The notes below the pieces were generated by a model, which saw nothing but the letters and a program-made list of their open reading frames with translations, was not told the origin of the DNA and ran no database searches. The translations under genes and the position numbers were made by a program. A stretch of 64,000 nt of DNA from Candidatus Dasytiphilus stammeri (GTDB lineage Bacteria; Pseudomonadota; Gammaproteobacteria; Enterobacterales; Enterobacteriaceae). The stretch lies in NCBI GenBank assembly GCA_037083745.1, contig JBAPLR010000003.1, positions 5,689 through 69,688 of the forward strand, in the 5' to 3' direction. Numbering within the stretch: position 1 is the first letter of the stretch; each line of letters begins with the position of its first letter. Positions 54,969 to 57,361 of the stretch are shown here, piece by piece.

Positions 54969-56284
54969 TTATCCTAACTCTTTAGCTAAAAAAGTAAATA
55001 TATTACCACGTTGACGAAAATTAGAATATTGATCTTGACTAGAGCAGGCAGGAGATAAAAGAACCGTATCCCCCGGCTTTAATTTCTTAGCAAGTAAGTA
55101 CATAGCTTCGATCATAGTATTTGTTTGTATTGTTATCTCGGGATATAATGTTGATAATAGATCTTTATCTCTGCCAAAGCAGTATACTTGTATTCGATCT
55201 TGTAAATACTCTTTAAGAGGACTAAAATCGGAAGATTTTCCATCTCCTCCCAAGAGTAAATAAATTATTCCGCTTCTTATTTTTCTAGTTAACTTCAGTG
55301 CAGCTATTGTACTCCCTACATTAGTAGCCTTAGAATCATTTATCCATTGAATCCTATTATTTTCCCAAATTAACTGATATCGATGCGGCAACCCAGTAAA
55401 ATTAGAAATAGTTTTTAAACTCACAGCCCGGGATACTCCTAACATGTCTGCTACTGCTAGGGCGGCTAAAACATTCATGTAATTATGCTCACCTAGTAAC
55501 CTGATATTCTTTGTATTTAACAATTTGTTACCATCTACATATAGACAAACACTACCCGACGAAGATTTATCTAGATAATAGTTACCTTTAGTACTGCCAA
55601 AACTTACATATTCTTGGAAAGAACTTCGTTTAGGGTGTGTGTTCTTATCTTCTGCATTATAAATACAAACGTCAGATTGTTCATAAATGCGTAATTTTGT
55701 ATCACGGTAATGATTAAATCCAAGAGGGTAACGATCTAGATGATCTTCACTAATATTTAAAATAGTTGCGGCTACAGTCTGCATACTCTGTATCGTTTCT
55801 AGTTGAAAACTAGAGATTTCTAATACATAAAGTTCATAGGGTTTGAGTAAAAGTTTAAGAGCTGGTAACCCAATATTACCCCCTAGCCCAGTATAATATC
55901 CATAAGAGCTAGCTATATCTGCAATTAAAGTGGACACAGTGGTTTTACCATTAGTACCAGTAATCGCCACAATAGGAAATCGAGCTTCTCGACAAAATAA
56001 TTCAATATCGCTGACTATTTCTATACCATTAGCTAATGCTTCTTGAAGAAATGGATGCATGATACTGATTCCCGGACTTAATACTATCATATCCGTGGAC
56101 TGTAACCATTTTCTGTTTAAAAAATCACAATATTCTACTTTTTTTGGTAACTTATTAACTTCGGGGAGATAAGATCTAGTATCTATCACGCGAGGTAATA
56201 GATCCCGCGATAAAAAAAAATCAATACATGAGAGTCCGGTTATCCCTATTCCAATTATGAGAATCTTTTTTTTTTATAATTCAT
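54969..56284 (-). CDS. murD: UDP-N-acetylmuramoylalanine--D-glutamate ligase MurD, out of register with its ATG because of an A10 tract
   Basis: The body (GTG 56189 downwards) has [11 protein letters not shown] and DSKATNVGS. The frame stays open upstream to 56273 and encodes [29 protein letters not shown] (E. coli [28 protein letters not shown]), but has no start codon. ATG 56284-56282 abuts the mraY stop and sits one frame away, across A10 (56266-56275). Confidence 0.85.
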
Positions 56285-57361
56285 TTAAGGTACCTTCACG
56301 AACGTTGATATTCCTATAAAAATCATTATTAAAGATAAAATCCAAAATCTTACGATAATCCGAGGTTCCGGACATCCTTTCAATTCATAATGATGATGTA
56401 GTGGAGCCATAAGAAAGAAGCGTGTTCCTCGTAATTTAAACCATCCGACTTGAATAATGACTGAAATAGTTTCTATAACAAATACTCCACCCATGATAAA
56501 TAACAATAATTTCTTTCGTAAGAGTACTGCAATTATTCCTAATAAACCTCCTAATGGCAGAGATCCAACATCTCCCATAAATATTTGAGCAGGATATGTA
56601 TTAAACCACAAAAAACCTAATCCTGCTCCCATAATGGCAGTACAAACTATTACTATTTCACTAGCATCCTGTAAGTAAGAAAGATGCAGATAACTTGCCA
56701 AAGTTACATTACCAGTCGCCCATGATATTAAAGCAAAACCGGAAGATACCAATACTAGGGGCATAATAGCTAATCCATCTAAGCCATCGGTGAGATTTAC
56801 CGCATTGCTCGTCCCAATAAGAACAAAATAAATCATTAAAAAATATATTATTTCCATGGAAGGAAAAAAATTACTTAAATCAGGATACATTATATTCTGT
56901 ATTGGAATTTTATTTTTATCAATCCACCATATCAATACAATTATTATACCTGTTATTATAGATTGCCAAAAATATTTCCATCGGGCACTTAACCCTTGGG
57001 TATTACGACGTGATAGTTTTCGGTAATCATCAATAAATCCTATAATTCCATAGCCTATTAATACAAATAATATACACCAAATATAAGAGTTAGATAACTG
57101 CGTCCAAAGTAATACGGTAAGGAGAATAGATATTAAAATTATCGTTCCTCCCATAGTAGGGGTACCGTACTTATTTAAATGAGTCTTAGGACCCTCCCTA
57201 CGGATAATTTGATTAAGATTTAATTTTTTTAATTTTTTTATAAATGCTGGCATCATAAAAATAGGAATAAAGAAGGCGGTCAGAAAACTAAAAATAGATC
57301 TAAAATTTAGAAAGGTGATATTTTCTCCATGTGTAATTTTGGTCAGTATCCAGAATAACAT
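56285..57361 (-). CDS. mraY: Phospho-N-acetylmuramoyl-pentapeptide transferase MraY
   Basis: It is a polytopic membrane protein with [32 protein letters not shown] and [11 protein letters not shown]. Confidence 0.93.

Follow-up and report, generated by a model that had tools for sequence, protein, structure and literature searches.

In the 64,000-nucleotide window that we analysed (contig JBAPLR010000003.1 of assembly GCA_037083745.1, 'Candidatus Dasytiphilus stammeri', positions 5,689 to 69,688 of the forward strand), the cell-wall gene murD is separated from its start codon by a run of ten A residues (A10) that is one nucleotide too short to keep the two in frame. We found the same one-A-short state in five symbiont species of the Listrus clade, together with conserved parallel frameshifts in dnaG and der, and the MurD reading frame behind the run has remained under purifying selection. 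We consider it probable that this old frameshift is rescued mainly by slippage of RNA polymerase, which would turn A10 into A11 in some of the transcripts. The murD frameshift is an unreported case of the kind known from Buchnera and Blochmannia, and what it adds to the known cases is a nested set of conserved frameshifts in murD, dnaG and der, each of which needs one additional A.

The break between the murD start codon and the MurD frame

All coordinates are window positions unless a contig is named, and the murD region is read on the minus strand, on which the MurD frame lies one base back from the frame of the ATG. The preceding gene, mraY (phospho-MurNAc-pentapeptide transferase, 56285..57361; 431 bits against NCBIfam TIGR00445), ends in a TAA stop at 56287-56285 that directly adjoins the ancestral murD start, an ATG at 56282..56284 that aligns with the MNY or MSY start of intact congeners and is now out of frame with the gene body. 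A Shine-Dalgarno-like GAAGG (56293..56297) lies 8 nt 5' of this ATG and serves it and no codon of the MurD frame, and GAAGG, GAAAG or AAAGG occupies the same position in 5/5 Listrus-clade species. The ATG is followed by AAT TAT, by exactly ten A residues (56266..56275), which the sequence, independent contigs and relatives mark as the site of a 1-nt deletion, and then by G ATT CTC. Its frame forms a mini-ORF (open reading frame) of nine codons, MNYKKKRFS* (56255..56284), which is the product expected when no slip occurs.

The MurD reading frame comprises 434 codons plus a stop (54969..56273, with the stop at 54969) and opens inside the A run, immediately after a TAA made up of T56276 and the first two A residues of the run. 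No ATG, GTG or TTG was found in this frame 5' of a GTG at 56187..56189, which is Val29 of the open frame and would yield a 406-aa product; the listing of open reading frames therefore gave the 406-aa ORF only. murD is not one uninterrupted ORF with its own start codon, the ATG being one base off and the first canonical start being codon 29, and this missing in-frame start bears on the expression of murD and not on the identity of the encoded protein. A first-pass annotation of this DNA had described the ATG abutting the mraY stop, the A10 followed by G ATT CTC, the closure of the ATG frame after nine codons and the lack of an ATG, GTG or TTG before the valine at 56189, all of which we recovered from the sequence, its translation and the ORF listing. 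It had also proposed that an A11 tract would restore a MurD start from the ATG, and the product so obtained has exactly the ancestral length. Its further remark that the AAA AAG of a dnaX-type site are not zero-frame codons here was equally correct, since A AAA AAA is the zero-frame heptamer, within TAT AAA AAA AAA AGA, and AAG occurs as a codon only in the MurD frame. A second slippage-prone run, an in-frame T9 (TTT TTT TTA, Phe-Phe-Leu; 56212..56220), lies 46 nt 3' of the A10 and stays at 8-9 T in relatives.

The translated MurD frame scored 370.1 bits against the NCBIfam equivalog TIGR01087 (cut-off 211.95), its residues 3-430 matching profile positions 1-439 of 441, and aligned with residues 6-437 of E. 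coli MurD (1e0d; E 8e-160), its second residue facing Lys6 of that enzyme. This profile match from position 1 and the alignment from Lys6 agree with the first-pass reading of the -1 frame as encoding the conserved nucleotide-binding fold of the MurD N-terminus. GIGITG aligns with GLGLTG (residues 12-17) and IDTR with MDTR (residues 34-37) of 1e0d, and both motifs lie 5' of, or at, GTG 56189. In E. coli MurD, the G-x-G-x-T-G loop and the D-T-R of the N-terminal Rossmann-like domain bind uridine diphosphate-N-acetylmuramoyl-L-alanine (UDP-MurNAc-L-Ala). GTG 56189 corresponds to Val33 of that enzyme, and initiation there would yield a protein without strand beta-1 or the glycine loop. From these alignments, the N-terminus of MurD appears to be needed.

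The source genome (510,906 bp in 3 contigs, 32.5% G+C) belongs to a strain from a Listrus beetle. Using the names of Weiss et al. 2024 (PMC11191362), we took the host of the source genome to be Listrus sp. 00 (draft), those of genomes G004, G010 and G008 to be sp. 01, sp. 02 and sp. 06, respectively, and G006 to be a draft from another Listrus species. The genomes were obtained from Illumina 2x150 reads assembled with metaSPAdes and MEGAHIT, and that of sp. 02 alone was also sequenced by Nanopore and polished with Illumina reads (PMC11191362). Over 56100-56450, the Logan contigs of two source-sample runs (35.8x and 168.7x) showed 0 differences, with contigs of about 10 kb passing unbroken through the A10 tract at 36x and 169x. 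In a second sample (run X4), from a relative that is possibly a sixth species, a contig of about 92% identity had no indel in the run. Because the data are Illumina reads, the independent contigs agree and runs of A11 and A12 were called elsewhere in these assemblies, a homopolymer miscall is unlikely. A 91-nt contig of run X2 overlapping the tract was mismatched at 8 of 40 nt and continued into an unrelated flank, and was judged to be a low-complexity match from other DNA.

Runs of exactly ten A or T number 18 in the genome against 8.5 expected from composition, so the A10 run alone is unremarkable. More telling are its position, precisely where the frame is broken, and the conservation of this break in relatives. 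A further A10 lies in frame inside a 172-codon open frame at 46084-46093 on the plus strand (C3:51772-51781), and an A10 is therefore tolerated in frame elsewhere in the genome.

Conservation, selection and parallel frameshifts

In 5/5 Listrus-clade species, the ATG frame closes within ten or so codons and one added A restores the MurD frame. The source genome and G008 carry AAT TAT, A10 and then G behind the ATG; G006 carries AAT TAT and A12, through a G to A change that leaves the overall length unchanged; G010 carries AAT TAT, A10 and then TATT; and G004 (74% protein identity) carries AAT AAT TAT, A10 and then TATT, each of them needing +1 A. ATG AAT TAT, the only part 5' of the run where constraint can be judged, is kept in all five frameshifted species. 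The murD start is intact in eight congeners that belong to other clades (Dasytes, Danacea and Dasytastes), where the starts include ATG AAT TAT AAA AAT AAG AAT ATT (MNYKNKNI) and a TTG. The comparison of tract length across strains that had been recommended in the first pass therefore returned a one-A-short state in five species and in the run X4 relative.

Within the Listrus clade, 16S identity goes down to 97.3% and synonymous divergence up to about 0.55. A rough figure, which leans on symbiont substitution rates, suggests that the frameshift is on the order of ten million years old or more. We propose that an ancestral ATG AAT TAT AAA AAT AAG AAT ATT became an A11 run by substitutions, and that one A was then lost from this run, which covers codons 4-7, in the ancestor of the clade. 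The G004 strain has been reported to have lost the lysine/diaminopimelate pathway completely, yet it keeps its mur genes.

Pairwise ratios of nonsynonymous to synonymous divergence (dN/dS, Nei-Gojobori) for murD were 0.23-0.37 within the clade, with bootstrap 95% ranges of 0.15 to 0.56, and 0.23-0.31 in congeners with an intact start; because the frameshifted clade equals the intact clades, there was no sign of relaxation. The MurD frame is open for 434-437 codons in 5/5 lineages, whereas a substitution-only neutral simulation left it open in no replicate at 0.15 substitutions per site or more, and in 0.85% of them at 0.07. Across the 28 codons that separate the run from GTG 56189, the proportion of nonsynonymous differences (pN) was below that of synonymous differences (pS) in 9/10 pairs, and the changes were typical third-position ones (GGG/GGT, ATA/ATT/ATC, ACC/ACT, CGG/CGT). 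The constraint on these 28 codons and the open frame indicate that the N-terminal segment is translated in the MurD frame, so translation must enter that frame at or before the run. By these measures murD is not a pseudogene, and the whole frame, including the part 5' of the GTG, is under purifying selection. The first-pass expectation that murD is probably still expressed is supported by the conservation in five species, the dN/dS values, the codon-like 28-codon segment and the simulation.

A genome-wide census of A/T runs of at least nine returned 86 runs, and three further genes were found to be split exactly at a run. The primase gene dnaG (C1:80370-82138, plus strand) breaks at an A10 outside the window (C1:81728-81737; locus L111 2859-2868), where the source genome reads ...GFYVKKK / RSKMRVLLSLLVQNPHF... 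and +1 A is needed. A break at A9 or A10 is present in 5/5 Listrus-clade species, and seven other congeners are open for 578-606 codons; the 134 codons 3' of the break have identical length and a dN/dS of 0.13-0.47, that is, purifying selection, and the N-terminal frame of G004 dnaG is intact. The essential GTPase gene der (engA; C3:80802-82288, minus strand) breaks at an A10 about 6.5 kb past the right end of the window (C3:81880-81889; locus L123) and again needs +1 A; this break is common to the source genome, G006, G008 (A11 via a substitution) and G010, and G004 has an in-frame A12 at the site. The third gene, dnaX (C1:249274-251194, minus strand), is split at an A9 (C1:249852-249860; locus L135 1499-1507) in the source genome only. 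Its zero frame closes four codons later, which would yield a gamma-like product, and access to the tau C-terminal domain takes A8 or A11; in relatives the gene is in frame, that of run X4 having two more bases. The dnaG, der and dnaX runs all recurred unchanged in contigs from both source runs. Judged by their distribution among these genomes, the cases appear nested by age, murD and dnaG belonging to the whole Listrus clade, der to a subclade and dnaX to one strain.

The three conserved cases (murD, dnaG and der) all need +1 A, and at least nine uninterrupted A residues were present in 14/14 conserved gene-by-species instances. Only 56/93 (60%) of the ordinary AAA codons in these genes are AAA in every one of the five species, so keeping AAA in nine of nine has a P of about 0.01. 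Among the other genes with A/T runs of at least nine, rplK, fabI, tilS, proC, lepA, nuoE and def-fmt were considered as frameshifts and rejected, their runs being in frame or intergenic, and a scan of A7-A8 runs for further split genes returned only adjacent-gene boundaries. Loss of mismatch repair as the cause of the frameshifts was ruled out, since mutS (C1:217032-219590) and mutL (C1:103109-104683) are both intact in 8/8 Dasytiphilus genomes tested. An intact pair of mutS and mutL is unusual in a genome of about 0.5 Mb and bears on the stability of homopolymer lengths.

Routes into the MurD frame

In the route that we consider probable, RNA polymerase would slip backwards on the 10-bp A:T hybrid and produce some transcripts with one extra A, and full-length MurD would most likely be made from the ATG on this A11 mRNA; an unstimulated -1 slip of the ribosome on A AAA AAA may contribute a smaller share. 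A run of about nine A residues is about as long as the RNA:DNA hybrid. Insertions made during transcription in Buchnera are almost all +1 in A/T runs (PMC5574713), and the +1 A needed in all three conserved cases matches this direction. Corrected transcripts make up 12-50% for Buchnera cell-wall genes and a Blochmannia gene, as the figures are given in PMC5009743, citing Tamas 2008, and both the slippage step and its yield in Dasytiphilus are proposed here by analogy with these two symbionts. That slippage rescue is documented in Buchnera and Blochmannia, as the first-pass annotation had stated, is borne out by PMC5009743 and PMC3017870.

The same product would arise if ribosomes starting at the ATG on unedited A10 mRNA slipped by -1 on A AAA AAA (Lys-Lys), which is plausible but, as the main route, unlikely. 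With its three AAA codons, the zero frame contains A AAA AAA as a valid X XXY YYZ heptamer, and the same holds at dnaG and der; the zero frame of murD closes a few codons further on, and a -1 shift is what all three conserved cases would need. However, no stable or conserved structure was found 3' of the run: the 70 nt downstream had folding energies of -5.8 to -8.4 kcal/mol, whereas shuffled sequences averaged -8.5 to -10.5, the native fold being the weaker one in 5/5 species, and no helix was shared among the five. Nor was an internal Shine-Dalgarno-like stimulator found about 10-14 nt 5' of the shift site, the sole such element being the GAAGG of the ATG, which ends 17 nt ahead of the run. 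In E. coli, the frameshift frequency at an unstimulated A AAA AAA is only a few percent. Moreover, the heptamer would suffice for a ribosomal slip, yet all 14 conserved instances keep at least nine A. Having the heptamer but neither stimulator, murD does not qualify as a programmed ribosomal frameshift site of the dnaX type, and with no downstream structure and at least nine A in all conserved runs the evidence leans to transcriptional slippage.

Other routes would need no slip during expression. Were the symbiont polyploid, a minority of A11 genome copies arising by replication slippage could supply MurD behind an A10 majority in the assemblies. We regard this as very improbable, even though homopolymers are hotspots of replication slippage (PMC3017870) and assembler contigs drop rare variants, because slipped-strand errors should be repaired where mutS and mutL are intact, the 10-kb contigs cross the tract unbroken at both depths, and the same majority state would have to hold in six samples and at three genes. 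Initiation inside the MurD frame, either at a non-canonical ATT or ATA just after the run or at GTG 56189 to give the 406-aa enzyme, is highly improbable. The ATT at open-frame codon 4 is kept in 5/5 species, and A-rich leaders favour initiation; in G004 (locus L005), the zero-frame stop overlaps a MurD-frame ATG (ATA ATG GGA, giving TAATG) in the classic layout of coupled termination and reinitiation. That layout is not present in the other four species, however, and G010 has its zero-frame stop placed differently; no Shine-Dalgarno element is suitably spaced from the ATT, the ATA or the GTG; initiation at the GTG would cost the enzyme its strand beta-1 and glycine loop, yet the 28 codons upstream of that GTG are constrained; and initiation within the frame leaves both the 3n+1 run length and the kept ATG AAT TAT unexplained. 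It is extremely improbable that the frameshift is an artefact, with a true A11 miscalled, or that murD is a pseudogene on its way out. Homopolymer miscalls do occur, and four other Dasytiphilus strains are without peptidoglycan synthesis; against this, five assemblies from different hosts agree with independent contigs of three runs, one of the five being an Oxford Nanopore and Illumina hybrid, A11 and A12 were called elsewhere, and the frame stays open in all five species with dN/dS equal to that of intact clades, for which the neutral simulation gave a probability below 0.01 even on the shortest branch.

Several points weigh against rescue by transcriptional slippage. A search for RNA runs holding murD returned none that holds the locus. 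The protein made by a -1 slip on A AAA AAA is identical to that from an A11 transcript, and run lengths were judged from contigs and not from reads, a scale at which minority A11 genome copies would escape notice. A transcriptome-wide study of Buchnera detected no frame-restoring transcription error (PMC5574713), and the quantitative importance of such rescue is therefore debated. Because four other Dasytiphilus strains have entirely lost the capacity to make peptidoglycan (PMC11191362), murD is not indispensable in the genus. Finally, it is puzzling that no lineage has regained an in-frame A11, which should be at least as fit, although mismatch repair is intact. A more speculative and improbable proposal is that the out-of-frame state is itself selected, the essential genes murD, dnaG and der having each stayed one A short of frame as species diverged, with uninterrupted runs and with mismatch repair kept. 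If that were true, slippage would act as a built-in attenuator that sets cell-wall, primase and ribosome-assembly functions at a low level, one that may depend on nucleotide pools, and would not be merely a tolerated defect.

Cell-wall genes and comparison with known systems

murD lies in a dcw cluster (51224-61465, minus strand) that comprises rsmH, murE, murF, mraY, murD, murG, murC and ddl, all strong equivalog matches, with a gap of only 133 bp between murD and murG. None of ftsL, ftsI, ftsW and ftsQAZ was found in place in the cluster. Elsewhere in the genome we found murA and one class A penicillin-binding protein (PBP)-type transglycosylase (C3:132029-132541), and a search of the whole genome returned no match to an FtsW/RodA-family protein. 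The first-pass statement that the rest of the pathway is intact therefore stands for the lipid II genes and the class A PBP and fails for an FtsW/RodA-type polymerase. The murE ORF (58755-60413, minus strand) has 552 codons, and murE profiles match it only from residue 62 on; the first 60 or so codons form an upstream extension, perhaps a remnant of a lost ftsI region or simply open non-coding sequence.

The Dasytiphilus genome paper makes no mention of frameshifts, slippage or pseudogenes, and its tables list murD and dnaG as present (PMC11191362). Annotation pipelines will call murD as a 406-aa gene from the GTG or as a pseudogene and will split dnaG and der, and metabolic reconstructions should count murD, dnaG and der as functional. 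Together, murD, dnaG, der and dnaX form a clean natural series in which the amount of slippage that suffices for an essential gene could be measured. If the proposed rescue holds, a frameshift kept alive by slippage, a phenomenon known from aphid and ant symbionts, would extend to an independent lineage of beetle symbionts.

The murD frameshift resembles those of Buchnera and Blochmannia, as these are described in the accounts of Tamas et al. 2008, Wernegreen et al. 2010 and Williams and Wernegreen 2010 (PMC3017870), in that an AT-rich insect endosymbiont carries a single indel in a run of at least nine A in a gene that is otherwise intact. Like the class defined by Tamas 2008, it is one indel in such a run with the gene otherwise open, and it has been kept across species under purifying selection (five species and the run X4 relative); in both settings, the frameshift is shared between species without sign of decay. 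The genes also correspond, cell-wall genes being affected in Buchnera, and poly(A) frameshifts in dnaG and dnaX of Blochmannia vafer (PMC3017870) paralleling the dnaG and dnaX cases in Dasytiphilus. In contrast to those symbionts, Dasytiphilus is an unrelated beetle bacteriome symbiont from the Erwinia/Pantoea neighbourhood. Its murD break comes three codons after the start, so that the unslipped product is a 9-aa peptide and not a truncated enzyme, and its slippage is proposed from DNA sequence, whereas corrected transcripts have been reported for Buchnera and Blochmannia.

With the programmed -1 site of E. coli dnaX, murD shares a slippery run of lysine codons, a -1 shift and a zero-frame stop soon after. 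The E. coli site, however, combines A AAA AAG with an upstream Shine-Dalgarno element and a downstream hairpin, whereas murD has A AAA AAA and neither stimulator; and unlike in E. coli dnaX, the zero-frame product of murD has no plausible function and the shifted product alone would be useful. A further likeness in mechanism would be to the programmed transcriptional slippage of Thermus thermophilus dnaX and of the IS element and Shigella cases on A9 runs (PMC5009743), where RNA polymerase realigns on runs of at least nine A or T and gives mRNAs with extra A residues that open another frame. Those systems make use of two products, whereas slippage at murD would merely repair a deletion.

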